Origin: Shewanella sp. KX20019
GTDB lineage: Bacteria > Pseudomonadota > Gammaproteobacteria > Enterobacterales > Shewanellaceae
Assembly (NCBI RefSeq): GCF_016757755.1
Contig: NZ_CP068437.1
Coordinates: 761,588 to 785,587, forward strand
DNA length: 24,000 bases
Direction: 5' to 3'
Positions 4,393-19,569 of the stretch are shown here, one piece after another. Both the position numbers and the translations under genes were made by a program. The notes beneath the pieces were generated by a model. That model made no database searches, was not told the DNA's origin, and was given only the letters and a program-made list of their open reading frames with translations. How positions within the stretch are numbered: position 1 is the stretch's first letter; each line of letters begins with the position of its first letter.

Positions 4393-4460
4393 AGATGTTT
4401 CCTATAGCGGGGAGGCAAAATTCTAAGCACAATACACCCCTCCCCAATACGAGTGGCATT

Positions 4461-4600
4461 GTGCTCAGGTCTTGCTGGGTTAACGACATAGTCATTAACT
4501 GTAAGTACCATGGCATTTGGCCAATTATGTTGATACTTACTCAATCGATGCTGATGTGTTGCAAAGATTGATAGCTACTCCCCCGAAGCAGAGCCGAGCA
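4461..4600 (-). promoter_or_regulatory. Probable yybP-ykoY (Mn2+) riboswitch aptamer in the 5' leader of the UPF0016 gene
   Basis: The minus strand reads ...cttcGGGGGAGTAGCtatc...(about 100 nt)...cccaGCAAGACCTGagc. GGGGAGUAGC and GCAAGACCU are the two most conserved blocks of the yybP-ykoY motif as I recall the L. lactis and E. coli examples. Downstream, at about 4415-4453, a GGGGAGG/CCTCCCC hairpin precedes the SD. The genomic context (metal exporter) fits. Confidence 0.6.
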
Positions 4601-5054
4601 TTATAGTGATAATGTGGCCAATATCAATGCTAAAAAAGCGTCCAATGCCTCAATTTTGAGCGAAAACAGTAAAACGTAAATTAACTGTTACTAAGCCTTT
4701 ACAGCCTTATTGTCGATTAGTATTAAGTTGATTTTATGCTGTGTCGATGGCTTGCCCGCGCGGTTAGTAGCTGTTAATGTCGCTAACAGTCATTTTTTAG
4801 AGAAAGAGTCGTAATGAAACATTCTTATCGATATTGCCCTCGATTTATACAGCCTCAGTGGCGAAGTTGATAAGGTGAATATCCGTATTATTTAACTAAG
4901 CCGTTGGGGCCAATTGGAATCGCTAAGGTTGATGATGACCAGATTCGATTGGGGGCTGTTAATAGTATTGTTAACGTGCGAAAAACCTCTCCCTCAAAGT
5001 CGTTCTAAATCTGACCTACCAAAAAGAAATTATAAAATCTAACAGGACAATTTT

Positions 5055-6254
5055 GTGAACTCAAAAATACTTGGCTCTATCGCCATTGTAGCTGGCACTG
5101 CAATTGGTGGTGGTATGTTGGCATTGCCACTTGCTACAGCTTCACTAGGTACCATCCCAGCACTGCTTTTATTAGTGCTGATCTGGGGCGTATCTATCTA
5201 CACCTCTTTATTAATGCTCGAAATCAATTTACGTGCAGGCGTGGGCCTAAATGTACATGCGATTACCGGTAAAACCTTAGGTAAAGTCGGTCAACTTATC
5301 CAAGGAGGCTCATTTCTAAGCCTACTGTTTGCGTTAACTATGGTTTATCTAATGGGTGGTTCATCGCTGCTTGAGTCTAAGATGGATCTGGTTGGCATGA
5401 AGATGGACAACCAACTGGCAGTGTTAATATTTACCGCTATATTTGGTGGTTTCATTGCGGTCGGCGTACGCTGGATAGATAAAGTATCACGGGTGCTGTT
5501 TACCTCAATGATCGCCCTGCTAGTTATTGTTGTCGCCTATCTGCTTCCTGAAGTGGATATGAACTTGATGATGAACAACTCTACCGCCGGCATAGTTGGT
5601 GGCAGTGATTTAACTAACTTGTGGTTAGCTGCTATTCCAATTGTGTTCACCTCATTTGGTTTTCATGTTTGTATTGCAACCATAGTGCGCTATTTAGATG
5701 GTGACGCGATGTCACTGCGTAAAGTGCTTATTATTGGTTCTACCATTCCATTAGTTTGTTACATACTTTGGTTGATGGTGACATTGGGCACGTTAGGTGG
5801 TGCAACGGTTTATGGCTTTGAAGGGTCATTACCGCTGCTGGTAACCGCACTGCAAGGGGTTGCAGACTCTGCCATTTTACAGCAGTTTATTGACCTATTT
5901 GCTAACCTCGCCTTGGTGACATCTTTCCTCGGTGTGACCATGAGCTTGTTTGATTACGTGGCAGAGCTAACGCGTGCAAAAGACAATCTGCTTGGCCGTG
6001 CTCAAACGTGGTTAATCACCTTTATTCCACCGTTATTGTGTGCGCTTTATTATCCAGATGGCTTCTTTCAGGTCCTCGGGTTTGCCGCTATTCCATTGGT
6101 TGTGATGATTATTTTCCTACCCATCGTGATGGCACTTGGTCAGCGCAAGCAAAACTTAGGCGGGTACCAAGTCTGTGGCGGCACTGCTGCCATGGGTGTT
6201 GCAGGCTTGTTAGGTGCAGGGATTATCGCGGCGCAGTTGTGGGTTGCTTTATAG
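5055..6254 (+). CDS. tyrP: Aromatic amino-acid:H+ symporter, HAAAP family (TyrP/Mtr/TnaB-like; closest by eye to TyrP)
   Basis: 399 aa with a GTG start. GSIAIVAGTAIGGGMLALPLA, IPIVFTSFGFH, FANLALVTSFLGV..SLFDY and ITFIPPLL..LYYPDGF are collinear with E. coli TyrP as recalled. About 11 TM helices. Confidence 0.8.
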   Translation: MNSKILGSIAIVAGTAIGGGMLALPLATASLGTIPALLLLVLIWGVSIYTSLLMLEINLRAGVGLNVHAITGKTLGKVGQLIQGGSFLSLLFALTMVYLMGGSSLLESKMDLVGMKMDNQLAVLIFTAIFGGFIAVGVRWIDKVSRVLFTSMIALLVIVVAYLLPEVDMNLMMNNSTAGIVGGSDLTNLWLAAIPIVFTSFGFHVCIATIVRYLDGDAMSLRKVLIIGSTIPLVCYILWLMVTLGTLGGATVYGFEGSLPLLVTALQGVADSAILQQFIDLFANLALVTSFLGVTMSLFDYVAELTRAKDNLLGRAQTWLITFIPPLLCALYYPDGFFQVLGFAAIPLVVMIIFLPIVMALGQRKQNLGGYQVCGGTAAMGVAGLLGAGIIAAQLWVAL

Positions 6255-6464: not shown

Positions 6465-8621
6465 ATGAAGAAATGGCTTTTGACAGTAGCTATCGCGACC
6501 TCTTTTGGCGCTGTGGCTGACGAAGGTATGTGGCAGCCCTATCAGCTTCCTGCGATGGCAGATGAGCTGAAGGCAAAGGGACTTGAAATTGACGTTAATT
6601 CGATTTCAAAACTTACCGAATATCCAATGAATGCCGTGATTAGCCTTGGTGGTTGTACGGCATCATTTGTATCTCCAAAAGGCCTAGTGGTGACAAACCA
6701 TCACTGCGCTTACGGCTCAATTCAATACAACTCTACGCCAGAAAAGAACCTGTTGCGTGATGGCTTCTTAGCTAAGTCATTTGGCGAGGAGCTGGCTGCA
6801 ACGCCGGGTTCACGTATTTTCGTAACTGAGAGCGTAGTAGATGTAACTGACAAGGTCAAAACAGGCCTTGAAAATGAAATCGGTAATGCGTTTTACAAAG
6901 GCATTGAGCAGCAAGAAAAGAGCTTAGTTGCGGAGTGTGAGCAAGAAGACGGTTACCGTTGTCAGGTTTACAGCTTCCACGGCGGCCTTGAGTATTACCT
7001 CGTTAAGCAGCTTGAAATTCGCGATGTACGTTTAGTGTATAACCCAGCAGCAAGCGTCGGTAAGTACGGCGGCGATGTTGACAACTGGATGTGGCCACGC
7101 CACACAGGCGATTATTCTTTCTACCGTGCTTATGTATCTAAAGACGGTAAGCCAGCAGACTTTAGCAAAGACAATGTGCCATACGAGCCAAAGAGTTTCC
7201 TGAAAGTGTCAGCTAAAGGCGTCAGTGACGGTGATTTTGTGATGGTTGCTGGTTATCCTGGGCGCACCAACCGCTACCGCACCGCTAACGAAGTTGAAAA
7301 CCAATTTGAGTGGTCGTATCCAGAAGGCAAAGTCTTGCGTGAACGTCTAATTGAGATCATCAAAGACACCGCGCCAGAAGGCAGCGATGAGCGCATCAAG
7401 TATGAAAGCTCAATTGCAGGTCTTGCTAATTACGCTAAAAACTTCACTTCGATGATCGAGTTCTATGGTAAATCAACTATGCTCGATGACCGTAAAGGGC
7501 TAGAGCAAGACTTAGCAAACTGGATCAAAGCTGATAAAAAACGCCAAGCTAAATATGGCGAAGTGCTGGCCCAGCTTGATAAGTTAATTGCTAAGGGGCA
7601 GCAAGGACAAGAGCGCGATTTACTGATGAGCTACATGGGTTACAGCACCATGTTAAGCACGGCTGACCGCTTATATCGTTTAGCGAATGAAAAAGCCTTG
7701 CCAGATATGCAGCGTGAGCCAGGTTATCAAGAGCGTGATATGACCCGCTTTACCTCTGGTATGGAGCGTATTGAGCGTCGTTATGCAGCCAGTGTTGATA
7801 AAGCGATGCTAGCGGACTTAATCGGCCGTTACGCAGCACTGCCACAAGATCAGCGCTTACCGGCGTTTGATAAAGCCTTTGGTATTAATAACAACTTTGA
7901 CGCGGCTAAGTTCAATAAGACGCTAGATAAGATGTATGCAAATACTAAGCTATCAGACAAAGAAACACGTTTAGCGTGGATGGAAAAGCCTGTAGCTGAC
8001 TTTAACAAGTCAAAAGATCCATTCATTCAGTACGCAGTAGCGACTTTTGATGAACGTATGAAGCGCGAGAAAGAGCGTAAACAGCTTTCGGGTGACTTAA
8101 TGAAGGTTCGTCCACAATACATGGACGCCATCATCGCTTACAACCGTGAACAAGGTAAGCCTGTTTATGCGGATGCTAACTCAAGCCTACGTGTCACCGT
8201 AGGTCATGTGAAAGGTTACTCACCTGAAGATGGCATGCGCGCTGAACCATTTACCCGTCTTGAAGGTATCTTAGCGAAAGACACAGGTGTTGAGCCATTT
8301 AACGCGCCTAAGAAGCAGCTTGAGCTGATTGCCAACAAGCAGTACGGCGATTACTACGTGAAGCCATTAGACTCTGTACCGGTTAACTTCCTATCGACGT
8401 TAGACACTACAGGTGGTAACTCAGGTTCGCCAACCTTGAATGGCCGCGCTGAGCTAGTGGGCCTGCTATTTGACGGCGTATATGAAAGTATCATTGGTGA
8501 TTGGGGTTACGACCCACAGACTAACCGTTCAATTCAGGTTGATAGCCGTTATATGCTTTGGGTAATGAAGTACTTAGATAATGCAGACAACTTGCTTGAA
8601 GAGATGGAAATTGTGCATTAA
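6465..8621 (+). CDS. S46-family dipeptidyl-peptidase (DPP7/DPP11-like), secreted/periplasmic
   Basis: 718 aa. A signal peptide is followed by the hallmark mature N-terminus ADEGMWQP. It has the catalytic His context VVTNHHC and the Ser context TTGGNSGSP, with a long helical insert between them. Confidence 0.85.
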   Translation: MKKWLLTVAIATSFGAVADEGMWQPYQLPAMADELKAKGLEIDVNSISKLTEYPMNAVISLGGCTASFVSPKGLVVTNHHCAYGSIQYNSTPEKNLLRDGFLAKSFGEELAATPGSRIFVTESVVDVTDKVKTGLENEIGNAFYKGIEQQEKSLVAECEQEDGYRCQVYSFHGGLEYYLVKQLEIRDVRLVYNPAASVGKYGGDVDNWMWPRHTGDYSFYRAYVSKDGKPADFSKDNVPYEPKSFLKVSAKGVSDGDFVMVAGYPGRTNRYRTANEVENQFEWSYPEGKVLRERLIEIIKDTAPEGSDERIKYESSIAGLANYAKNFTSMIEFYGKSTMLDDRKGLEQDLANWIKADKKRQAKYGEVLAQLDKLIAKGQQGQERDLLMSYMGYSTMLSTADRLYRLANEKALPDMQREPGYQERDMTRFTSGMERIERRYAASVDKAMLADLIGRYAALPQDQRLPAFDKAFGINNNFDAAKFNKTLDKMYANTKLSDKETRLAWMEKPVADFNKSKDPFIQYAVATFDERMKREKERKQLSGDLMKVRPQYMDAIIAYNREQGKPVYADANSSLRVTVGHVKGYSPEDGMRAEPFTRLEGILAKDTGVEPFNAPKKQLELIANKQYGDYYVKPLDSVPVNFLSTLDTTGGNSGSPTLNGRAELVGLLFDGVYESIIGDWGYDPQTNRSIQVDSRYMLWVMKYLDNADNLLEEMEIVH

Positions 8622-9121: not shown

Positions 9122-9715
9122 CTACGCAACTAACTGAGTCCTGCTAGCCAAAACTGCATCCACGTCAATCCAAAGAGCGACTGAGCGTTCAACTCCAATT
9201 TGCATCGACTTGCCTTTCCCCATTCGTCTTGATGGTATCTCTAGTAACCTAAGAATTCTTTCACATGCAAGGGTAGTGACTAAGACGTAATGTTTGATGT
9301 TATTTTCAATAGCGAAATCAAAGAATGAATTAACTAAGTCCGCTGTGGATGAGGTCACTAGGCTCGTGCCTGCTTGTCCATCACCTTTTTGAATTGCAAA
9401 GCGGCTAATTTCCCACACTTCTTTATTTTGAGGTGCTAGCTCTCCTTGCAGTAGTTCTGGGAATACATCTTTCAACATATATTTTCCTTGAGTAGGGAGA
9501 GCTCTCCAGCAGCCTATGACTTCATCATTGTCGTTGGTCATCGCGATATGAGAAACTTCAAGCTGATCAAAACTGTCTCGTTCAAGGCCATTTGTAGTGC
9601 TTACTTCCCAATCAAGTCTTTGTTTAAAAGTTTGTTCACGTAATTTAAAAATTCTGTTTAACACTGGTTGATTAGTCTTTATATCGCTGTTTTTTAGGAA
9701 TGTAATTTTTTGCAT
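9122..9715 (-). CDS. luxI: LuxI-family acyl-homoserine-lactone synthase
   Basis: The 245-aa ORF in the track is over-extended. ATG 9715 (MQKITFL...) follows a GGTGGA SD and gives 197 aa. LuxI signatures are present: RxxxF..LxW, ERDSFD, GCWRALPT and VWEISRFA. Confidence 0.85.
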   Translation of the reverse strand: MQKITFLKNSDIKTNQPVLNRIFKLREQTFKQRLDWEVSTTNGLERDSFDQLEVSHIAMTNDNDEVIGCWRALPTQGKYMLKDVFPELLQGELAPQNKEVWEISRFAIQKGDGQAGTSLVTSSTADLVNSFFDFAIENNIKHYVLVTTLACERILRLLEIPSRRMGKGKSMQIGVERSVALWIDVDAVLASRTQLVA

Positions 9716-9790
9716 AGTATCCACCTGAAGGTTCCGAAGACATGAGCGAAGATATGAACTTTTTAGGAACGCTATAACTGTCAGTTCTAG

Positions 9791-9810
9791 CTGTGTCAGA
9801 TCTGACAGGT
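9791..9810. promoter_or_regulatory. lux/tra-box-like operator in the divergent luxI / orf306 intergenic region
   Basis: CTGTGTCAGATCTGACAGGT contains a perfect 14-bp palindrome TGTCAGATCTGACA (9794-9807). It matches 13/20 positions of the V. fischeri lux box ACCTGTAGGATCGTACAGGT and shares the CAGATCTG core with the tra box. The centre lies about 85 nt from the luxI ATG and about 73 nt from the orf306 ATG. Confidence 0.5.
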
Positions 9811-9873
9811 AACGTCTTTGAGCAGTTTTGTCTAAGCTAACGGTAAGGATTAATTGCAAGTTGAAATAAGTAT

Positions 9874-10794
9874 ATGAGTGCTCAATTACATAGTTTTTCC
9901 TCCCAAACGCAGGTGGATAAAGAACTGTTGTTCATATTTGATAAGGCACATTACCTATCTAAGAGAGCTGGGTGGGCATGGTCTTTGATTCGAAATGGTC
10001 GACGCGTTAATTCTGGTAGCGGTATGTTCGGATATCCAGCAAGTAACTTACATATTCCGGTTGATGAAACTTGCAACCAAGGAGCGTTATATCTGTCATC
10101 GCCACCTCATGCTGGATTTATTACATGGGACGAACTACTGCCAAATTTAAAAGCTGCAAATATCCTTGAGGTAAATATTCCAAGCGTGCTGGAGGGAAGC
10201 ATCTCACTTGATGACAGTCGGAGGCAACAGGCTGAAAATGGGATTGAAATTTTTTGCCATGAAGTAAAAGGAATAGGTAGTCAAAGTTACTATGGGGCTT
10301 ATTGCTTAAAAATGAAAAAACGGCCCTGGATTACTTGTGTTACGGCTACTGGCATAGGAGGAGGGAATGTTGATTTATCGAATTTTTATGATGAGTTTGG
10401 ATTCAAACAAAGGGTAATTGGCAAAATAAGAGGTAGTCATGCACTCATTATTGATCCAAGAATTAATTGCGAAGTCTTTAAGAAAATCAGGAACGTAGCA
10501 GGCTGTCGTCTACAGACTCATGAATATGAAAGTATTGAGGGACTAAAAGCATTCCTTAGGGGGTTAGAACTAATGGATCTGTCTACAGTCGTTGCGATAG
10601 TCCATCACGATCTCTACCAGACAATGCTTAGTTTGGGCTTGATTGACGAGTTATCAATAAGTTACGAGTTGATGAGTTTGTGCTCAAACGTACAGAGCAC
10701 ATTTACTATACTAGATTATAAAGATTGGCAAATAACAGAATGTAGCCCTTTAAGTTCGGGTATAAATGTTGAATTTATTAATAAGCCATTTTAA
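9874..10794 (+). CDS. Hypothetical 306-aa protein between luxI and luxR (possible degenerate RibD-like fold, speculative)
   Basis: Long uninterrupted ORF divergent from luxI, with no obvious SD. Segments in RibD order include GALYLSSPPHAG, ENGIEIF, KKRPWITCVTATGIGG and GLIDELSISY, but the HAE and PCxxC Zn motifs are absent. Confidence 0.55.
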   Translation: MSAQLHSFSSQTQVDKELLFIFDKAHYLSKRAGWAWSLIRNGRRVNSGSGMFGYPASNLHIPVDETCNQGALYLSSPPHAGFITWDELLPNLKAANILEVNIPSVLEGSISLDDSRRQQAENGIEIFCHEVKGIGSQSYYGAYCLKMKKRPWITCVTATGIGGGNVDLSNFYDEFGFKQRVIGKIRGSHALIIDPRINCEVFKKIRNVAGCRLQTHEYESIEGLKAFLRGLELMDLSTVVAIVHHDLYQTMLSLGLIDELSISYELMSLCSNVQSTFTILDYKDWQITECSPLSSGINVEFINKPF

Positions 10795-11109: not shown

Positions 11110-11868
11110 ATGGAGCAAGAGTACATGGATAGTAATGTCTTTTCTCAAATTCTACAGAATTTGGAGTTTTTAAAGTCGGCTGAACAACTGAAGACAGCTT
11201 GCGAAGAGTTTTGTTTACTGCTTGGTATACCCTACTATTTAATGGGGATCGTATCCCCTGATTCACTGAATTCCCCTTCTATGAATGTCCTGAGTAATTA
11301 CCCTGAAGAATGGCTTGATAGCTATTTCAAACAGAATAAGCAGAAGGATGATCCCGTCGTAGCTTATATGATGAATAAGCATGCACCGGTTGAGTGGAAC
11401 CAATTACTTCAGCTTAGCCAGTTTAATAATGCACAGAGTCAGAGTTTCATGTTGGAAGCTAAAGAGTACGGTTTAAAAAATGGTCTTAGCATTCCTATTC
11501 GCTCTTCGTTGGGAAAATTTGCAGTGTTTAGTTTAGCGATAGATGATGATAGTGAGGCGGGAAAACGCAAATTAAATGACATTTTGCCTTTCGCACATAC
11601 ATTCGGAGTGAATTTATTTGAAAGGCAAATAAATATAACCTCAGAAGAATCAATAGCAGCTAAATTGACGAATAGGGAGACTGAATGCCTATTTTGGGCA
11701 TGTGAAGGGAAAACCGCCTGGGAGATCTCTCAAATAGTCGATATTACCGAGCGCACGGTTCTATTTCACTTAAATAATTCAACTAAAAAGTTGGGAGCCA
11801 CAAATCGGCAGCATGCTGTTTCTTTGGCTATGCGCTATGGAATAGTGACTCCTAACTTGAGAACGTAA
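11110..11868 (+). CDS. luxR: LuxR-family AHL-responsive transcriptional regulator
   Basis: 252 aa. The N-terminal autoinducer-binding domain has conserved W..Y...D-P (WLDSYF..KDDPVV), W (VEW) and G (GLKNGLSIP). The C-terminal GerE/LuxR HTH is LTNRETECLFWACEGKTAWEISQIVDITERTVLFHLNNSTKKLGATNRQHAV. ATG 11125 (GGAG upstream) is an alternative start. Confidence 0.9.
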   Translation: MEQEYMDSNVFSQILQNLEFLKSAEQLKTACEEFCLLLGIPYYLMGIVSPDSLNSPSMNVLSNYPEEWLDSYFKQNKQKDDPVVAYMMNKHAPVEWNQLLQLSQFNNAQSQSFMLEAKEYGLKNGLSIPIRSSLGKFAVFSLAIDDDSEAGKRKLNDILPFAHTFGVNLFERQINITSEESIAAKLTNRETECLFWACEGKTAWEISQIVDITERTVLFHLNNSTKKLGATNRQHAVSLAMRYGIVTPNLRT

Positions 11869-12013: not shown

Positions 12014-12042
12014 AGCTCACTTAAACCTTATTTAAGTGAGCT
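12014..12042 (-). terminator. Perfect 12-bp hairpin overlapping the stop codon of the ABC gene (possible end of the lan operon)
   Basis: agctcacttaaa (12014-12025) pairs with tttaagtgagct (12031-12042) around a 5-nt loop. There is no U-tract on either strand. It lies in the convergent luxR / lan-operon spacer. Confidence 0.4.
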
Positions 12043-13620
12043 GGAAATAATAAGTCCATTTCCTGAAATGGTAATGCTGGTATCGAATATATCAGCAAAT
12101 CGCTCTCCCTCATGCATTATCATCATCAACGAAGCACCTTTGGTAAATGTGTCTATTAATTGGATGATAGAGGCTTTACTTGCATCATCTATGTTTGCTA
12201 ATGGCTCGTCAAAGAGGTAAGTTTTTGCTGGCTTTAATAAACATATTGCAATTTGACACTTCTTTTTTTGCCCTTCAGATAAAGAGTCATACTGTGATTC
12301 TAAGCAGTCTTGTAATTTCAGTTCATTTACTAATTGGTCAACCTTATCTTGGCTTTGGTACTTTTCGGCTAATATACTGAGGTTCTTGCCTATACAACCT
12401 GGTAATAAACCGAAAGGATAAAGTGAAGCACTGATATCTTCTAGATTTTGTCCCGATATCTTCCCGCTATTCGGGTGATAGAAACCGGCAAGTAAATTAA
12501 TAAAAGTGCTTTTGCCTGAACCATTAGGCCCACGTATGATTGTTCTATTCGACGCCTCAATATTAATGCTGACATTGTCAAATATCGATTTCCCTTGATG
12601 TTCATATGCAACATCAGTCATTTTTAGACCTGCGTGAGGTAGCCTTTTTTTAGGAGATATCGCTGCCTCATATTTGAATATTCTATACCTAGTGACGAGA
12701 GTATTTAAACTTGCTAGCTGAGGTAAGATAGATGATAGCTGTTGAACTGCATTGATAATCATTGAAAATGCACGTGTTAGTGCAAATAAAGAGCCTATTG
12801 TAATGATGCCTGTAATAACCTGAAAACCTGCTACAACCATTACTGATAATTCAGCGTACGATAGGAAGACCGAGCTTATAGAACGGTACATACTTGAGTA
12901 CTTAACGCTCTGATAGCCTGCGTCAAGAGGTTGCTCTAAGCCATGTTTAACCTCTCTAGTGGCAGTGCCGTCTAAGCTATTTAATTTAACTAATTTGAAG
13001 CTATCAATCACAGTAGATAGAATTGATTTGAATTCAGCTTCAGATTCATGGAGTTTTTCTGTTACGACACCGATCTTTCCACTAAACTGACTTGCAAGTA
13101 AGTAAAGGATAGGCAAGATTATGACTAGACCCAAAGTGACCTTCCAGCTAATCCAGACTGCGACGCCAATGCCTGAAATAGCGACAACAACCCCAGTAAG
13201 CATTGATACTGCTGTATCTACCACTGTCGCCAGATGTTTAGGTTCATCATGGATTCTGGATATATAGTACCCTTTACCGTTCGAATCAATCTCTTTACAG
13301 TCCTGTAAGTAATAGATGGAGGTGAGCTCGATGCTCATTTGCTGCTGTAAGTTATTTTTAACTTGCTTACGCAGTAAAGAGGTAAAGTAGCCAATTAACC
13401 TACCAGCGGTAACAACCCCTGTAACGGCCAACGAGAGAATGACAAAGTAGCGCGTATTTCCATCTGTAATGGCATCAATTAGATATTTTATAGCCATCGG
13501 GTCCAAGATTGTAAAGACGACGGCTTGTAAAATACTTAGTGTAAAAAGCAAGCTAAGTTTAACCTTTTGCGGGTAAAGTAATTTATAGATCTCTTGCAGA
13601 TTCTCTTTGCTTATTGACAT
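12028..13620 (-). CDS. ABC exporter, fused permease-ATPase half-transporter (no C39 peptidase domain)
   Basis: 530 aa. The N-terminal half is hydrophobic with about 6 TM helices. Walker A is GPNGSGKST, the signature is LSEGQKKK and Walker B is YLFDEP. The start lies 13 nt after the LanKC stop, indicating an operon. Confidence 0.85.
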   Translation of the reverse strand: MSISKENLQEIYKLLYPQKVKLSLLFTLSILQAVVFTILDPMAIKYLIDAITDGNTRYFVILSLAVTGVVTAGRLIGYFTSLLRKQVKNNLQQQMSIELTSIYYLQDCKEIDSNGKGYYISRIHDEPKHLATVVDTAVSMLTGVVVAISGIGVAVWISWKVTLGLVIILPILYLLASQFSGKIGVVTEKLHESEAEFKSILSTVIDSFKLVKLNSLDGTATREVKHGLEQPLDAGYQSVKYSSMYRSISSVFLSYAELSVMVVAGFQVITGIITIGSLFALTRAFSMIINAVQQLSSILPQLASLNTLVTRYRIFKYEAAISPKKRLPHAGLKMTDVAYEHQGKSIFDNVSINIEASNRTIIRGPNGSGKSTFINLLAGFYHPNSGKISGQNLEDISASLYPFGLLPGCIGKNLSILAEKYQSQDKVDQLVNELKLQDCLESQYDSLSEGQKKKCQIAICLLKPAKTYLFDEPLANIDDASKASIIQLIDTFTKGASLMMIMHEGERFADIFDTSITISGNGLIISSSLK

Positions 13621-13633
13621 GAATATACCCTTA

Positions 13634-16297
13634 TTAGCCTAAGTCATGTAACCAACGAGGCTGTCCATCAACGAGCCTCTGCAGAAACAACCCTATACCT
13701 GAAGAACCAAACGCTAAATCAGTGGATAAGCGTTGTGCAAATTTACCCGGATAGATATGGCCATTAGGTTTTTCGATTGAAAATTGCATTATGCTATCCG
13801 CGATATGACGAGCTGACTGTAGGTAAATTGGATCCTTAGTTGCTCGATTAATATCCAGTAATAACTCCCCTAATCCAGCTAGTCCATTAAAGCTGCCTTG
13901 CTCTGCGGAATATCGAGAAAAATTATTGGTCGCCAAAGGTTGTAATAAGTTGAGATAGAAAATGGATTGGGTAACTTCATAGAATCGAACTATCACAGCG
14001 CCAATCCCAGCTGCGCCAAACTCCCAGTAAGGAAGGCGTTGGTCGCTATCGGATGTTTCTCCCCAGCTCAGAGGGTTTTTAGCTTCTAAGCCAATATTGA
14101 TATCATAGCGTATGGCATCTTCAGCTTGCTCTAAGGTGTCTTTGGAGCCGTTGAACTTATAAAGCTGTAACAGAAATAGTGCTATGCCTGAGCTACCATG
14201 TATTAGACCTATATGCTCTTTACTGTCATCTTCTTGCGGGTATCGTGTGCCACTGGAGCTGGCAATACTCATACTCTCAAGTCGACATGCGATATCAGCA
14301 GCATATTCCAAATAACTGTCATCATTAGTTTTCTTGTAAACTGAAAGTAACATGAACCCAATACCCGCTAAGCCATATCCAAAACTGCAGCATTGATTCA
14401 ATAGCGGGGATTGAATACTCTTTCGGGCTAAATACTCGGCTTTCTCTAGTCGCCCAATCTCAATTTCTGCCAATGCCATACCCGCAGAACCAACTAATAT
14501 CCCCGGTGCGACATTGGTTTGCATTGCATTATCTATTTTATCTATAAGGTGATTAGGTACCGTTCTTCCTGCGCGGGTGAGCATCACTGCTGGTCCGTAG
14601 TAGCCGTATGCAATGGCATTTTTATGTAAGTCGAAGGCTCTGTAATCTAGAGGAACGAAGTTTTTACTCGTCTTACGTTCAACTCCTGTTTCAATAAAGC
14701 GGGCAATCTCGCTAACTTCATGCTGGATCTGTTTGTCGTCGAATAGGCTCGGAGTCGAGGGTAATATCTTGTATGGTTGCGCATGCTTTTCAGCTATTTG
14801 TGGTTGGAACTGCTGCGCTAAGGTGAAAACTAGTTTTTTCGCTTCTAGATGCTGACTATTGGCAAGAAGTTTAATGACCTCGCTAATACGAGTATCTAAT
14901 TTACAATCTTGTTCTAGCTTAGTTAATAGTTTCCAGCAAATGGGTTTATGGAGATCGAAAAAATTTTGAATGGGTAATATCATGCTATAAAGCACCATTG
15001 AAAGAGCATACCAGTCACCCGCAAACGTATTGCCGTTTTTAAGCAGTAAGTCATAATCACTAAAGCCTGGCGTTGTCAGCACCGGAATATTTTCTCTGTC
15101 TATCACAACATTCTCATGATCCAATTTGTAAGAGCCATCAAAGTCTATGAAGCGAATAGTGTGTCTTTCTCCATCAACCATAATATTATTTGGAGAAATA
15201 TCACCTAATACTATGTTTGCATCATGTGCGACTTCAATTGCTTCAATACAACTATTAGCGATCCAAGCGAACACACCTTTGAATCGCTCAGCAGATGCAC
15301 TCGTTCCTGTAAATGGCACTAGAGTACATTCATTACTGGCTCTAAATTGCCTTAATGTGATCCCCGTTACAAACTCTTCAACAAGGAATGAGTGCTCCCA
15401 CTCAAGAAACCAATCGATCGCTTTTGGAAAGTACTGACAATCTTGCAGTGCCTGCAAAGTGTCGTATTCGTTTTGTAGTACTCTTTCGGCATAGACGCTG
15501 GCCTTAGTCATAGAGCGAAAGCTGATATTAGGGCGAGCTTCCTTTATAACCACTTCTGATTTTGTCTTTAGATCTAGGGCTTTATATACACCTCCACTAT
15601 TTGAAAATGCCAATGCCTCGAGTATTTGATAGCGTTGTTTTAGGGGCGTGTTGGTTTCATTTATTGGTAGTGGTTCGGGAAACGGTTCAGCAATCCAATC
15701 TGGTAATTGATAGAAGGGTGTTCGAAGATCCTCCGTGAGCAGTCCGGTGTTATTTTTGATGCAAGCGACTGATTTTCCGCTTACTTGAAGCTTGGGTAAA
15801 AGTAAAAATCCACCATAGCGATAGTGAACTACTTGACTATCTTTGTATCGTTTATCTGACAGTATATAGGGGCCACTGTTGGCTTCTAGAGCGACGTGAA
15901 GTGCGTCTATTAGCGTACGAAAAATGGCATTATTCTGTGGATATATTGTAATCAGCTTTCCTGCACTGCTACGCGAACATGACTTTGAATTCATATTCCC
16001 AGCAATATCTTTGCGACAAATAACTTTAAATGCAGTTCCATACTTTATGCAACAAGCGACTGTTTTTTCTATAACATCAATAATTTCATTCTGTACTGAT
16101 GAAATGTGTATTTTAAAGCCTTGCAAGGGTAAATTTAGAGGGCCATTTGATGCTGACAGCCAAATGCTCTTACGTGTAATAATCCAATAATCAGGCAATA
16201 ATTTTTTGATAGTATCTTCATAGAGTTCGTCGGCAGATAACTCCGTAGGGTGAGTAAAGAAATATCGATCTCCATACGTATAAAGATTATTGCTCAT
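13634..16297 (-). CDS. lanKC: Class III lanthipeptide synthetase (LanKC-type: phospho-Ser/Thr lyase + Ser/Thr kinase + LanC-like cyclase without Zn ligands)
   Basis: 887 aa. The lyase region has GFKIHISS and GKLITIYP...YRYGGF. The kinase has GGVYKA...VVIKEARP, the catalytic loop GDISPNNIMV and IRFIDFDGS. The C-terminus has six GxxG-type LanC repeats including GLIHGSSG. The WCxG and CHG Zn-ligand positions read WEFGAAG and LAFGSSG. Confidence 0.85.
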   Translation of the reverse strand: MSNNLYTYGDRYFFTHPTELSADELYEDTIKKLLPDYWIITRKSIWLSASNGPLNLPLQGFKIHISSVQNEIIDVIEKTVACCIKYGTAFKVICRKDIAGNMNSKSCSRSSAGKLITIYPQNNAIFRTLIDALHVALEANSGPYILSDKRYKDSQVVHYRYGGFLLLPKLQVSGKSVACIKNNTGLLTEDLRTPFYQLPDWIAEPFPEPLPINETNTPLKQRYQILEALAFSNSGGVYKALDLKTKSEVVIKEARPNISFRSMTKASVYAERVLQNEYDTLQALQDCQYFPKAIDWFLEWEHSFLVEEFVTGITLRQFRASNECTLVPFTGTSASAERFKGVFAWIANSCIEAIEVAHDANIVLGDISPNNIMVDGERHTIRFIDFDGSYKLDHENVVIDRENIPVLTTPGFSDYDLLLKNGNTFAGDWYALSMVLYSMILPIQNFFDLHKPICWKLLTKLEQDCKLDTRISEVIKLLANSQHLEAKKLVFTLAQQFQPQIAEKHAQPYKILPSTPSLFDDKQIQHEVSEIARFIETGVERKTSKNFVPLDYRAFDLHKNAIAYGYYGPAVMLTRAGRTVPNHLIDKIDNAMQTNVAPGILVGSAGMALAEIEIGRLEKAEYLARKSIQSPLLNQCCSFGYGLAGIGFMLLSVYKKTNDDSYLEYAADIACRLESMSIASSSGTRYPQEDDSKEHIGLIHGSSGIALFLLQLYKFNGSKDTLEQAEDAIRYDINIGLEAKNPLSWGETSDSDQRLPYWEFGAAGIGAVIVRFYEVTQSIFYLNLLQPLATNNFSRYSAEQGSFNGLAGLGELLLDINRATKDPIYLQSARHIADSIMQFSIEKPNGHIYPGKFAQRLSTDLAFGSSGIGLFLQRLVDGQPRWLHDLG

Positions 16298-16339: not shown

Positions 16340-16367
16340 ACGCCGCAGTAAAGGTAATTACTGCGGC
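16340..16367 (-). terminator. Putative attenuator / partial terminator between the precursor genes and lanKC
   Basis: cgccgcagtaa (16340-16350) pairs with ttactgcggcg (16357-16367) around a 6-nt loop. On the minus strand it is followed by tatttaattt. It sits between the lanA4 stop (16421) and the lanKC ATG (16297). Confidence 0.45.
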
Positions 16368-16420
16368 GACTAAACAAATATTAGTGGAAAATTGTTTACT
16401 AATAATTGTTCACGGTTTTT

Positions 16421-16519
16421 CTAGTTTTGTTCACCGCAATGATTACTGATTGTGCTCCATTCCATTAACTCAGCATCGGAAGAACTAGTAAGCGATTGCA
16501 ATTTAAGTATGTTATTCAT
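16421..16519 (-). CDS. lanA4: Class III lanthipeptide precursor A4: MNNILKLQSLTSSSDAELMEWSTISNHCGEQN (32 aa)
   Basis: Hand-translated; not in the ORF track. AAGGAA SD. The leader ILKLQSL is ILELQ-like and the core is S-T-I-S-N-H-C. The C-terminal tail differs from the other copies. Confidence 0.75.
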   Translation of the reverse strand: MNNILKLQSLTSSSDAELMEWSTISNHCGEQN

Positions 16520-16555: not shown

Positions 16556-16660
16556 TTAGTCTTGTCCGCGGTCGCCGCAATGGTTACTGATCGTACTCCA
16601 TTCCATTAGTTCAGCATCAGAAGAGGTGGCAAGTGTTTGTAGATTTAGTATGTTATTCAT
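16556..16660 (-). CDS. lanA3: Class III lanthipeptide precursor A3: MNNILNLQTLATSSDAELMEWSTISNHCGDRGQD (34 aa)
   Basis: Hand-translated; not in the ORF track. AAGGAA SD 8 nt upstream. Leader ILNLQTL and core STISNHC. Confidence 0.8.
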   Translation of the reverse strand: MNNILNLQTLATSSDAELMEWSTISNHCGDRGQD

Positions 16661-16696: not shown

Positions 16697-16801
16697 TTAG
16701 TCTTGTCCGCGGTCGCCGCAATGGTTACTGATCGTGCTCCATTCCATTAATTCAGCATCAGAAGAGGCAGCAAGTGTTTGTAGATTTAGTATGTTATTCA
16801 T
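16697..16801 (-). CDS. lanA2: Class III lanthipeptide precursor A2: MNNILNLQTLAASSDAELMEWSTISNHCGDRGQD (34 aa)
   Basis: Hand-translated; not in the ORF track. AAGGAA SD. Leader ILNLQTL and core STISNHC. Confidence 0.8.
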   Translation of the reverse strand: MNNILNLQTLAASSDAELMEWSTISNHCGDRGQD

Positions 16802-16837: not shown

Positions 16838-16942
16838 TTAGTCTTGTCCGCGGTCGCCGCAATGGTTACTGATCGTGCTCCATTCCATTAGTTCAGTATC
16901 AGCAGAGGCAGCAAGTGTTTGTAGGTTTAGTATATTGTTCAT
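16838..16942 (-). CDS. lanA1: Class III lanthipeptide precursor A1: MNNILNLQTLAASADTELMEWSTISNHCGDRGQD (34 aa; an in-frame ATG at 16945 would add one Met)
   Basis: Hand-translated; not in the ORF track. AAGGAA SD. Leader ILNLQTL and core STISNHC. It is the first gene of the operon. Confidence 0.8.
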   Translation of the reverse strand: MNNILNLQTLAASADTELMEWSTISNHCGDRGQD

Positions 16943-17013
16943 CATTTAAATTCCTTTTGTTTTGATTGTCTGTTTGACAGAGTAAAGACTATTTGAAATT
17001 TAGTTTTTAGAAA

Positions 17014-17033
17014 AGCTGTAACAATTAACAGGG
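17014..17033 (-). promoter_or_regulatory. Candidate lux-box-like dyad upstream of the precursor array
   Basis: The minus strand reads CCCTGTTAATTGTTACAGCT, a CTG-N10-CAG dyad with CCTGT/ACAG arms. It matches 12/20 positions of the V. fischeri lux box. A TAGTCT -10-like hexamer at 16991-16986 would place the dyad centre near -44. Confidence 0.3.
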
Positions 17034-17285
17034 TAGTAATTGTGATTAGTTACACTAAATGCTTTAAATTGTTTTTAGTTTTGTAATAAAGGTCGCTGGC
17101 TAGGTTCAGGATTTGTTTAAAATAAACAAATTAATGGTTGTGTCTAATCTCTATATTCACATATTTAAACTTGCTAATAGTAGTTGCACAACATATTTTA
17201 TTTTCACTTCGTATTTATACAAAGGTACTCATTAATAATTATTAGTGCGACGAGTGAGGCTCCCCCAGGGCAACCGCATGAGTGC

Positions 17286-18328
17286 TTAGTTTTCAACCTC
17301 CGCACTCAAGCCTGCAATTAAAACGCTTTCAAGCATCACTGGATTCATTAAACACCGCTTCTGTTTACCGACAATACTCAGTTTGGTTGGCTCTGAACGC
17401 AACATATTCAACGCCATATGACGTAAACAAGCTAAGTTTTCTGCACCGTTATCTTTATAAATCTGGCAAGCATCCTCATCCATACTGACATCGAGCACCC
17501 AATGCATTGACTCGATACCCCAATGTTCACGTACTGCAGACGCGGCCTGCTTAGCGCTCAATTCCTTTGAACTGATGTAGTAACGATACTCAAGTCCAAC
17601 GGACTTACCCTGTTTGTATCGAAAGCTTTCTATCATGATGATACTTTTTAAGTTCTTCCACCGCGTAAAGTTGCCATCAAGCTCTTGCGCATTTAACACG
17701 GTGCATTGTCGAGACTCAATTCGACCATGTCCTTTTTCAAAGTCTATCTTACCCAATACGGCTAAGCGTGTTGGTTTAAAGGATTTTTCAATGGCTTGTC
17801 GCAACTTGCCTTGATTGCTTTTAACCGCGAGTAAATAGTCACCATCTTGAGCTACAATCGTCCTAGCTATCTTTGTCTGGCAAGCCATAGCATCAATTGT
17901 GACTACAGCTCCGCGTAAATCGAGAATCTTAAGCAGTTCTGGAATAGCAGTGATTTCATTGCCTTTCTGAGCCGTTTTAACCTGACCAAGCACGAGTTTG
18001 TTTGATGAAGTGTAGGCACTTATCATGTGAATGGTACTTGACCTGTCTTCGCGGTTATACGAACCACGAAGTGTTTTCCCATCAATAGCGATCACTTGAC
18101 CTTCTGTCAGAGCATGAATCGATTGCATCCAGGCTAAAAAGCATTGTTGGAATTGCTCTGGTTCAATCCTCGAGAGAATACGAGCAATAGTGTCATCAGC
18201 TGGAATATCGTTTATAAACATGCCATTGCTTTTAAACCATTGATGGTGGTCTAAGATATACTCTCTAATATCAAACCAACCTTTAGCGCCCGCAATAACG
18301 GCGCAAAGGGAACCGAATAAGACCTCAA
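17286..18328 (-). pseudogene. ISAs1-family (H-repeat/YhhI-like) DDE transposase gene, 5'-truncated by an IS3-family insertion
   Basis: The track ORF starts at ATG 18221, but the frame stays open upstream (...FEVLFGSLCAVIAGAKGWFDIREYILDHHQWFKSNG-MFINDIPADDTIARI...) right up to the IS3 IR. It is collinear with E. coli YhhI as recalled (AIDGKTLRGS, ITAIPELL, TIDAMACQ, REHWGIES). About 20-25 N-terminal codons are missing. Confidence 0.75.
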
Positions 18329-19569
18329 AGAGTGGTAAGCCCCTAGAACAGTAGACACTTCATAGAGTTATACTTAACCAAAAATATGAGGTGTTACATG
18401 CGCGGAAAACGATATCCCGATGAGTTCAAAATTGAAGCCGTTAAACAGGTCACTGAACGTGGCTATAAAATAGCAGATGTTGCTGACAGATTAGGGGTTA
18501 CTTCCAAAAGTTTGCACAACTGGATTAACAAGTTTGATAAGCCAGAAAAGCAGCACATCACCATTGATAATCAGCAAGACGAAATACGTAAGCTCAAGGC
18601 GGAGCTTCGCCGTGTAACCGAAGAGCGAAACATCCTAAAGGAGGCCGCCGTGTACTTTGCAAGCGAGTCAAAGAAAAGTACACGTTCATAAAGTCTAGGC
18701 TCAAGCAGTATCCTGTGAAAATCTTATGCGAAATACTTGGAGTCCATCGTAGTGGTTTCTATGCCTGGCTGAAGGAACCTCAGAGTCGAAGAGCGACTGA
18801 AGACAAACGCTTGCTGGGTAAGATTAAACAGTTTTGGCTGGAAAGTGGTTGCGTTTATGGCTATCGAAATATCACCTTGGACCTTAAAGATGATGGTGAA
18901 GTTGTTGGTAAAAACCGTGTATATCGAATCATGAAACAGGCTGAAATTAAAGCTGTACGAGGTTATAAACGCAATCCAACCTTTGGCGGAGGCGATGTTA
19001 ACCATACGGCACCTAATACATTAAATCGAGGCTTTGATGTCGTCAAACCCAATATGATTTGGGTGACCGATTTCACTTATATTCGTACCCATGAAGGCTG
19101 GCTGTATCTCACCGTTGTGATAGACCTTTTTTCAAGACAAGTCGTAGGATGGACGATGAAAAGTACACCGAAGGCAGAGTTAGTTATAGATGCTCTATTG
19201 ATGGCTATATGGAGACGCTCACCTACAGAAAAGGTGCTAATACATTCCGATCAAGGAGTGCAATATACCTGCTCAGATTGGCGTAGTTTTCTAAAAGAGC
19301 ACAACCTTGAAGCCAGTATGAGCCGAAGAGGAAACTGCCATGATAATGCTGTCGCTGAGAGTTTCTTCTCGCTGCTGAAAAAAGACAGGGTTAAGCGAAA
19401 AGTCTATAAAACCAGAGATGAAGCACGCTCAGAAGTATTTAACTATATCGAATATTTCTATAATCCAGTGCGGCATCATGGTAGTAATAATGGACTGTCT
19501 CCGATCAAGTTCGAGAAGCAGTATTATGAAAACCTAGAAAGGTCTAGAAAACTGGGGGCTTACCACTCA
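18329..19569 (+). mobile_element. Intact IS3-family insertion sequence (about 1.24 kb)
   Basis: Imperfect terminal IRs: left (a)gagtggtaagcccctagaacagtagac, and the reverse complement of the right end tgagtggtaagcccccagttttctagac. Between them lie orfA and orfB in the 0/-1 frame arrangement. Boundaries are good to about 1-2 nt, and no clear target duplication was seen. Confidence 0.85.
18386..18691 (+). CDS. IS3-family transposase OrfA (HTH + leucine-zipper region)
   Basis: 101 aa. Motifs are RYPDEFKIEAVKQV, the HTH IADVADRLGVTSKSLHNWI, and the C-terminal ILKEAAVYFASES typical of IS3 OrfA. Confidence 0.9.
   Translation: MRCYMRGKRYPDEFKIEAVKQVTERGYKIADVADRLGVTSKSLHNWINKFDKPEKQHITIDNQQDEIRKLKAELRRVTEERNILKEAAVYFASESKKSTRS

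Follow-up and report, generated by a model that had tools for sequence, protein, structure and literature searches.

The 24,000-nt stretch of Shewanella sp. KX20019 analyzed here (contig NZ_CP068437.1, positions 761,588–785,587; called the window in what follows) contains gene lanKC, whose product we take, with a probability of 0.97 or higher, to be an intact class III lanthionine synthetase (LanKC), encoded between four small precursor genes (lanA1 to lanA4) and a gene for an ABC half-transporter. Gene lanKC occupies positions 13634..16297 of the minus strand, exactly as put forward in an earlier interpretation made from the DNA letters alone (the sequence-only reading); it codes for 887 aa, starts with ATG and ends with a stop codon that falls within these coordinates. 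The start codon is backed by the identity of the N-terminal end (MSNNLYTYGDR...) to that of a Shewanella orthologue, and is preceded by an AAAGGAA ribosome binding site. The order of the lyase (residues ca. 29–208), kinase (ca. 220–500) and LanC-like cyclase (ca. 555–887) domains, previously deduced from short motifs, was borne out by a Pfam search, which returned matches far beyond chance to RamC_N, the phospho-Ser/Thr lyase domain (residues 29–208, E = 2.7e-51), Pkinase (233–468, E = 1.5e-14) and LANC_like (563–880, E = 3e-25). All nine of those motifs are present in the protein: GFKIHISS (at residue 60), GKLITIYP (113) and YRYGGF (159) in the lyase domain, VVIKEARP (249), GDISPNNIMV (365) and IDFDGS (384) in the kinase domain, and GLIHGSSG (697), WEFGAAG (758) and LAFGSSG (861) in the cyclase domain.

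At the sequence level, LanKC has every feature expected of class III and lacks those of class IV. The NCBIfam equivalog model for LanKC, NF038151 (cut-off, 575 bits), matched with 640.1 bits over model positions 3–833, a result confirmed on the genome, whereas NF038150, the equivalog model for the class IV synthetases (LanL; cut-off, 650 bits), gave only 423.7 bits. A sequence search of the PDB identified as the closest solved relative the metal-independent class III enzyme ThurKC (8SAO/8SAP/8SAM; E = 6.1e-88, with residues 34–882 aligned), followed by an 871-aa entry (9WJ0/9WOP; E = 8e-80), which is presumably the class III-c enzyme TherKC. The matches to CuvL (8CAR/8CAV), which we take to be a class IV enzyme, and to the kinase domain of CurKC were much weaker (E = 5.1e-45 and 1e-16, respectively). 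We also modeled LanKC with AlphaFold from an alignment of 76 homologues, obtaining a mean pLDDT of 92.1 and a pTM of 0.91; in this model, the cyclase domain consists of fourteen helices, mostly with pLDDT above 90. The best Foldseek match was again ThurKC, which aligned over all three domains (TM 0.76–0.79), followed by SalKC, CuvL (TM 0.74) and PneKC; the top 18 matches were trifunctional lanthipeptide synthetases without exception (18/18), and the LanC-like proteins LanCL1, LanCL2 and GCR2 matched the C-terminal third of the model. The profile and structure comparisons suggested by the sequence-only reading thus both agree with its assignment to class III.

That assignment had been based on the absence of the Cys/Cys/His triad that binds zinc in other cyclases, and this absence is confirmed. 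LanKC contains Cys at positions 82, 83, 94, 107, 179, 287, 324, 350, 454, 465, 636, 637 and 671, and there is none in its last 216 residues. In LanC-type cyclases such as NisC, where His212 is followed by Cys284 and by Cys330-His331, both Cys ligands are C-terminal to the catalytic His (PMC10604976). Since the last 216 residues of LanKC, where both Cys ligands must lie, are devoid of Cys, no alignment can restore a zinc site. To map the ligand columns we used as zinc-type comparator a class I LanC encoded elsewhere in this genome; its GLAHG, WCYG and CHG motifs are intact and line up with their counterparts in 8BYK, a class I cyclase of solved structure. When a profile was built from 121 cyclase domains of LanKC enzymes and compared with this protein by hhalign, the alignment covered 279 columns with a probability of 96.7 %, and paired GLIHGSSG (H700) with GLAHGVPG, PYWEFGAAG (E759) with GWCYGDLP (Cys), GSFNGLAG (residues 801–808; F803 and N804) with GLCHGSSG (Cys and His), and LAFGSSGIG with the last repeat of LanC, FLTGYAGIG. 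The positions of the zinc ligands in LanC, LanM and LanL are therefore occupied in LanKC by E759 (Cys), F803 (Cys) and N804 (His), within codons 759–804 (13886..14023, minus strand). An independent alignment to ThurKC led to the same mapping, with S726/F770/D771 corresponding to E759/F803/N804; native ThurKC numbering equals the 8SAO chain index plus 3, an offset verified with F770/D771 and five residues of the lyase domain. The hhalign mapping also agrees with the published superposition of ThurKC and NisC. We discarded an alignment in which the LanC had been included by means of MAFFT --add, because it was shifted by one helical repeat, with CHG falling on GLIHG.

This mapping confirms WEFGAAG as the equivalent of WCxG, with E759 opposite the Cys, but not the pairing of LAFGSSG with CHG, which was off by one repeat: the counterpart of CHG is GSFNGLAG, with F803-N804, and LAFGSSG is the seventh helical repeat. 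The cyclase domain likewise has seven GxxG motifs (residues 565, 603, 642, 701, 761, 805 and 864), instead of the six reported, and all seven turns are invariant in the 76 homologues. The GxxHG motif is kept as GLIHGSSG, as claimed, with a LanC-type catalytic His at H700. A survey of 120 homologues showed no Cys at the first ligand column, nor Cys-His at the second, in any of them. Column 700 contains His (87/120) or Tyr (25/120); column 759, Arg (68/120), Glu (15/120) or Gln (13/120); column 803, Phe in 98 of the 120, and column 804 is highly variable. The column of NisC D141 contains Asp in 96/120 homologues and S638 in LanKC. Five metagenomic proteins from the same clade as LanKC (P0011–P0015) carry Cys instead of Phe at column 803, followed by Ser, and lack the other two ligands. 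We also considered a non-canonical metal site formed by C636, C637 and H700, and rejected it: C636, C637 and C671, all the Cys of the cyclase domain, are peculiar to this LanKC and absent from its 14 closest relatives, making a cryptic metal site unlikely.

The residues involved in dehydration and in leader recognition are conserved. Mutagenesis showed that residues K65, K108, K117, R163 and R191 of ThurKC are needed for dehydration (PMC10604976), and these correspond to K62, K105, K114, R160 and R192 of LanKC, of which K62, K114, R160 and R192 are invariant among the 76 homologues. The three residues of ThurKC that establish hydrogen bonds with the leader Gln, R112, Y243 and E258 (PMC10604976), are identical in LanKC (R109, Y238 and E253), and most of the validated ThurKC residues are invariant across the homologues. 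The kinase residues K252, E277, D366, N371 and D385 are also retained and invariant; the third residue of the kinase DFx motif is Asp in LanKC and Glu in more than 90 % of the homologues.

Upstream of lanKC, and on the same strand, there are four tandem precursor genes, each with an AAAGGAA ribosome binding site: lanA1 (16838..16945, 35 aa, MMNNILNLQTLAASADTELMEWSTISNHCGDRGQD), lanA2 (16697..16801, 34 aa, in the same 90 % identity cluster as lanA1 and lanA3), lanA3 (16556..16660, 34 aa) and lanA4 (16421..16519, 32 aa, with a divergent tail, GEQN). Their products are 72–94 % identical in pairwise comparisons, with an invariant leader segment (NNIL.LQ.L) and the core ELMEWSTISNHCG; the four copies carry the leader sequence ILNLQTL and an identical core motif, STISNHC. 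The NCBIfam model for class III precursors, NF038154 (lanthi_III_a; cut-off, 22 bits), was scanned against two of the copies, LanA3 and LanA4, which scored 36.6 and 32.8 bits, respectively. The presence next to lanKC of small genes that pass this model, and whose products carry an LxLQ leader and a Ser/Ser/Cys motif, corroborates the class III reading. The region of ThurA1 corresponding to this core carries labionin (PMC10604976).

The gap between lanA4 and lanKC contains a G+C-rich hairpin followed by a T-rich tail (16341..16368, minus strand), identified in a terminator scan, with 11 pairs, 7 of them GC. The intergenic RNA has a folding energy of -31.2 kcal/mol (z = -4.35). A hairpin between the precursor and the enzyme genes is the usual arrangement for producing precursor in excess, and this one is likely a partial terminator setting a high precursor-to-enzyme ratio. 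The gene for the ABC half-transporter, similar to lanT (12028..13620, minus strand, 530 aa), starts 13 nt past the end of lanKC; its product contains the Pfam domains ABC_membrane and ABC_tran, has no C39 peptidase domain and is 54–66 % identical to the product of the gene following lanKC in four other genera. The genes of the operon are intact and preceded by ribosome binding sites, without frameshifts or premature stops.

These features point to a working model whose enzymology we hold to be highly probable. The four lanA genes would yield precursors of 32–35 aa, and the kinase domain (K252, E277, D366, N371 and D385) would phosphorylate Ser/Thr residues of the STISNHC core, from which the lyase domain (K62, K105, K114, R160 and R192) would eliminate phosphate to leave dehydroalanine or dehydrobutyrine. 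In the LanC-like toroid, the single Cys would then add to the central dehydroalanine in a metal-free reaction; by analogy with the STxSNxC substrates of ThurKC and TherKC, the resulting enolate may attack the first dehydroalanine to form one labionin or, if protonated instead, lanthionine would result. The peptide would be exported by the downstream ABC half-transporter and its leader removed by a protease encoded elsewhere. Transcription would probably start from a LuxR-controlled promoter upstream of lanA1, and the hairpin before lanKC would allow the precursor mRNA to exceed that of the enzyme.

Several observations weigh against this model. Ring formation by ThurKC and TherKC needs an Arg-Asp-Asp network and a Phe, and is lost in the mutants D771A and F770A of ThurKC and R609A, D666A and D770A of TherKC (PMC10604976, PMC13504147). 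In LanKC, the residues corresponding to R610, D667 and D771 of ThurKC are G640, H700 and N804, and only the Phe (F803) is retained from the set; because the network is not kept, the cyclization chemistry cannot be extrapolated directly from these two enzymes, and could be weaker or different. Additionally, a gene for a leader peptidase is absent from the cluster, although clusters without it are common in class III (PMC7268733, PMC10604976). The dyad found in the lanA1 promoter, described below, is imperfect and, as a bare pattern, falls short of significance in the window. Finally, MacB-type efflux genes accompany three homologous loci and are absent here and, together with the insertion sequences (IS) bordering the cluster, this means that it could be partly decayed.

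The alternative that best survives the evidence, improbable as we judge it, is that LanKC dehydrates its substrate but cyclizes it poorly or not at all, with the cyclase domain acting as a scaffold and the product being a linear dehydrated peptide or a spontaneously formed ring. In its favor, network residues whose loss abolishes ring formation in ThurKC and TherKC are replaced by N804, G640 and H700, and the NisC D141 column contains S638 instead of the Asp kept in most homologues. Nevertheless, no part of the cyclase domain is missing, its fold is predicted with confidence and its GxxG turns are invariant, and F803 is retained as in the majority of homologues. Furthermore, the gammaproteobacterial LanKC clade displays throughout E/Q759 together with F/C803, and no precursor copy from five genera has lost its Cys, which argues for a Cys that is used. 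Since position 804 varies across class III generally, the Arg-Asp-Asp network seems to characterize the Firmicute subclasses III-a and III-c and not class III as a whole.

Somewhat less probable still is that the cluster is a decaying horizontal acquisition whose pathway is no longer functional. The G+C content of the cluster stretch is 0.35–0.42, compared to 0.44–0.49 in its flanks. Both flanks are matched in the DNA of the nearest sampled relative (82–86 %), but nothing there matches positions ca. 8.7 to 22.1 kb of the window. At the edge of this stretch (17265–19565), an ISAs1-type transposase gene, with one further copy in the genome (98 % identity), adjoins an IS3-family element with three further copies (100 %). 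The absence of a DNA match in the relative, the lower G+C content and the IS elements at the edge indicate that the cluster probably lies in a variable, horizontally acquired island. These same features, together with the missing MacB-type genes and the fact that, of 148 Shewanella species genomes, just 3 (KX20019 among them) contain a LanKC above the cut-off, also speak for decay, but they contrast with the integrity of all the operon genes and with a core that is identical in the four precursor copies. The host itself is proteobacterial, as the sequence-only reading assumed, because the flanking housekeeping proteins, a KatB catalase and an S46 peptidase, belong to 90 % identity clusters with proteins from Shewanella piezotolerans, S. 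abyssi, S. pealeana and others.

The last alternative, a class IV synthetase with zinc ligands elsewhere in the alignment and zinc-dependent cyclization, would fit the shared domain order, the residual score with NF038150 and the retention of the LanC-type His (H700), but can practically be dismissed and class IV membership ruled out, given that this score is far under the cut-off while the LanKC model passed, that the required site of both Cys ligands has no Cys, and that the upstream Cys of the cyclase domain are absent from the closest relatives; no zinc ligands appear elsewhere in the alignment, and a LanC-like fold is present.

LanKC is most similar to ThurKC, the andalusicin synthetase of Bacillus thuringiensis (class III-a), with which it shares the three-domain order, identical lyase, leader-binding and kinase residues, the lack of zinc ligands, a Phe in place of the second ligand (F770 = F803), a substrate that combines a leader of the LxLQ type with an STxSNxC motif, and a cluster without protease. 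Its identity to ThurKC is, however, just 31 % over the whole protein and 28 % over the cyclase domain, and it contains E759, N804, H700 and G640 in place of S726, D771, D667 and R610, and DFD in the kinase domain instead of DFE; its substrate lacks the Thr-rich stretch of that of ThurKC and has around 3 dehydratable residues, compared to 11, and its host is Gram-negative. The substrate of TherKC (class III-c) also contains a motif of the STxSNxC type (STVSNNCK), but that enzyme has the R609-D666-D770 network and a conserved GLIDGWSGVS motif, where LanKC has no network and GLIHGSSGIA (PMC13504147). TherKC forms a dimer through its cyclase domain, an arrangement that LanKC may or may not share. 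LanKC therefore lies outside subclasses III-a and III-c: Arg609/610, Asp666/667, Asp770/771 and Ser725/726 are lost and only Phe769/770 is retained, while its 31 % identity to ThurKC is far under the within-subclass values in PMC13504147. The actinobacterial enzymes LabKC, RamC and CurKC, for labyrinthopeptins, SapB and curvopeptin, have the same class III architecture without zinc ligands and act on a Ser/Ser/Cys motif to give labionin or lanthionine (PMC7268733), although their substrates usually contain two SxxSxxxC motifs and those described here a single SxxSxxC. LanL enzymes such as VenL share the domain order and keep the Cys/Cys/His zinc site that is absent here. Lastly, the comparator LanC, of class I and encoded in this same genome, has in common with the LanKC cyclase domain the alpha,alpha-toroid, seven GxxG turns and the catalytic His, and differs in containing GLAHG/WCYG/CHG instead of GLIHG/WEFG/FNG.

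The proteins closest to LanKC are from Shewanella sp. (60 and 59 % identity), Ferrimonas (55 %) and Microbulbifer (53 %), followed by others from Pseudoalteromonas, Arsukibacterium and metagenomes (44–47 %); more distant ones, with up to 36 % identity, are spread over many phyla. A phylogeny constructed with FastTree and rooted on ThurKC grouped LanKC with full support in a clade of 15 gammaproteobacterial members, from Shewanella, Ferrimonas, Microbulbifer, Pseudoalteromonas and Arsukibacterium. Ferrimonas, Microbulbifer, Pseudoalteromonas and two other Shewanella have the same lanA(n)-lanKC-ABC arrangement of genes, with 3 to at least 8 copies of lanA. Shewanella, Microbulbifer and Pseudoalteromonas share one and the same core, WSTISNHC, to which WSTFSVNC corresponds in Ferrimonas. 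This near-identity across genera means that the core is more conserved than the enzyme, suggesting a specific receptor or target and not a generic antibiotic. An orthologous Shewanella cluster (L008, G102:C133:52952-58558) contains at least eight tandem precursor genes (positions 4452–5543 of the locus); two of their products end directly after the Cys (…WSTISNHC), and thus the variable C-terminal tail seems dispensable.

Lack of zinc ligands is a defining and long-known property of class III (PMC7268733, PMC10604976), and in public records the NCBI pipeline has already given the closest relatives of LanKC (45–60 % identity) the name class III LanKC. LanKC is hence an ordinary, intact and automatically recognizable member of its class. 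Our literature search found no characterized class III lanthipeptide from Shewanella or other Gammaproteobacteria, no text containing this core sequence and, when extended to other Gram-negative bacteria, no characterization of this clade. The remaining interest, in itself modest, is mechanistic, for the cyclase, and ecological, for a LuxR-linked family of marine peptides. Two recent structural studies presented the Arg-Asp-Asp network as a conserved catalytic framework (PMC10604976, PMC13504147), and a clade without it but with a LanC-type His is a natural test case for metal-free cyclization and labionin formation. The minimal substrate, with one STxSNxC motif, three hydroxyl residues and one Cys, would ease mechanistic mass spectrometry, and the Gram-negative marine host with a conserved LuxR partner suggests that the product may be a quorum-regulated peptide. 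Tentatively, and with more doubt than confidence, the 15-member clade could be viewed as a distinct class III subclass, characterized by ring closure by H/Y700, E/Q759 and F/C803 in place of the Arg-Asp-Asp network, a one-ring peptide from the WSTISNHC core, quorum control of the LuxR type and an accessory protein of ca. 310 aa, possibly reductase-like.

Two quorum-sensing genes are found downstream of the operon. The first, convergent with it (11110..11868, plus strand), codes for a LuxR-type regulator with autoinducer-binding and GerE helix-turn-helix domains in Pfam. A convergent luxR gene directly follows the exporter gene in the window and in the homologous clusters from Microbulbifer (L012) and Shewanella sp. 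(L014), with 73–80 % identity. The second (9122..9859, minus strand) codes for a LuxI-type acyl-homoserine-lactone synthase (Pfam Autoind_synth, E = 2.3e-30; the NCBIfam TraI-type model was below its cut-off). An autoinducer synthase was not called within 8 kb of the L012 and L014 clusters, in which LuxR resembles a solo receptor; both loci contain the MacB-type tripartite efflux genes that are missing from the window. Lanthipeptide clusters were among the types recorded in a 2018 survey of gene clusters linked to luxR in Proteobacteria.

Around 70–90 nt upstream of lanA1 there is a Lux-box-like dyad, CCCTGTTAATTGTTACAGCT (17014..17033, minus strand), a candidate LuxR site. Similar dyads occur upstream of the lanA arrays in L014 (Shewanella sp., ACCTGTCATTAATTACAGGT), L011 (Ferrimonas, GGCTGTCAGATCTGACGGGT) and L012. 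As the bare pattern is not significant, the case for LuxR control rests on position and recurrence, and we give even odds to control of the lan operon by LuxR. Another dyad in the window, CTGTGTCAGATCTGACAGGT (9791–9810), situated between luxI and the adjacent gene orf306, is nearly identical to two dyads upstream of the lanA array in Ferrimonas (L011, ca. 6865–6925), GGCTGTCAGATCTGACGGGT and CCCTGTCAGATATGACGGTT, which suggests that a LuxR-type operator may be common to these genera.

Gene orf306 (9874..10794, plus strand), between luxI and luxR, codes for a conserved protein of 306 aa with no assigned function, which gave no sequence match in Pfam, NCBIfam or the PDB. Only five homologues were identified in a large protein search, and homologues of ca. 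310 aa (34–45 % identity) are encoded beside the lanKC clusters in L012 and L014. Its AlphaFold model is poor (pLDDT 61), and the weak similarity of its C-terminal half to RibD/Rib7/DHFR (TM 0.3–0.5) is just a hint. The product of orf306 could have a tailoring or accessory role in this lanthipeptide family.

A third Shewanella species contains a different and more distant LanKC (L007, G051:C1:4001842-4007409; 714 bits with NF038151), with no obvious precursor of the WSTISNHC type within 1.3 kb upstream. The genome of KX20019 itself contains a second lanthipeptide locus, of class I (L009, G000:C1:301487-305548), in which the gene for the 407-aa LanC used above as comparator (G000:C1, ca. 302987–304186; L009 positions 1477–2700) is situated beside a gene for a LanB-type dehydratase.

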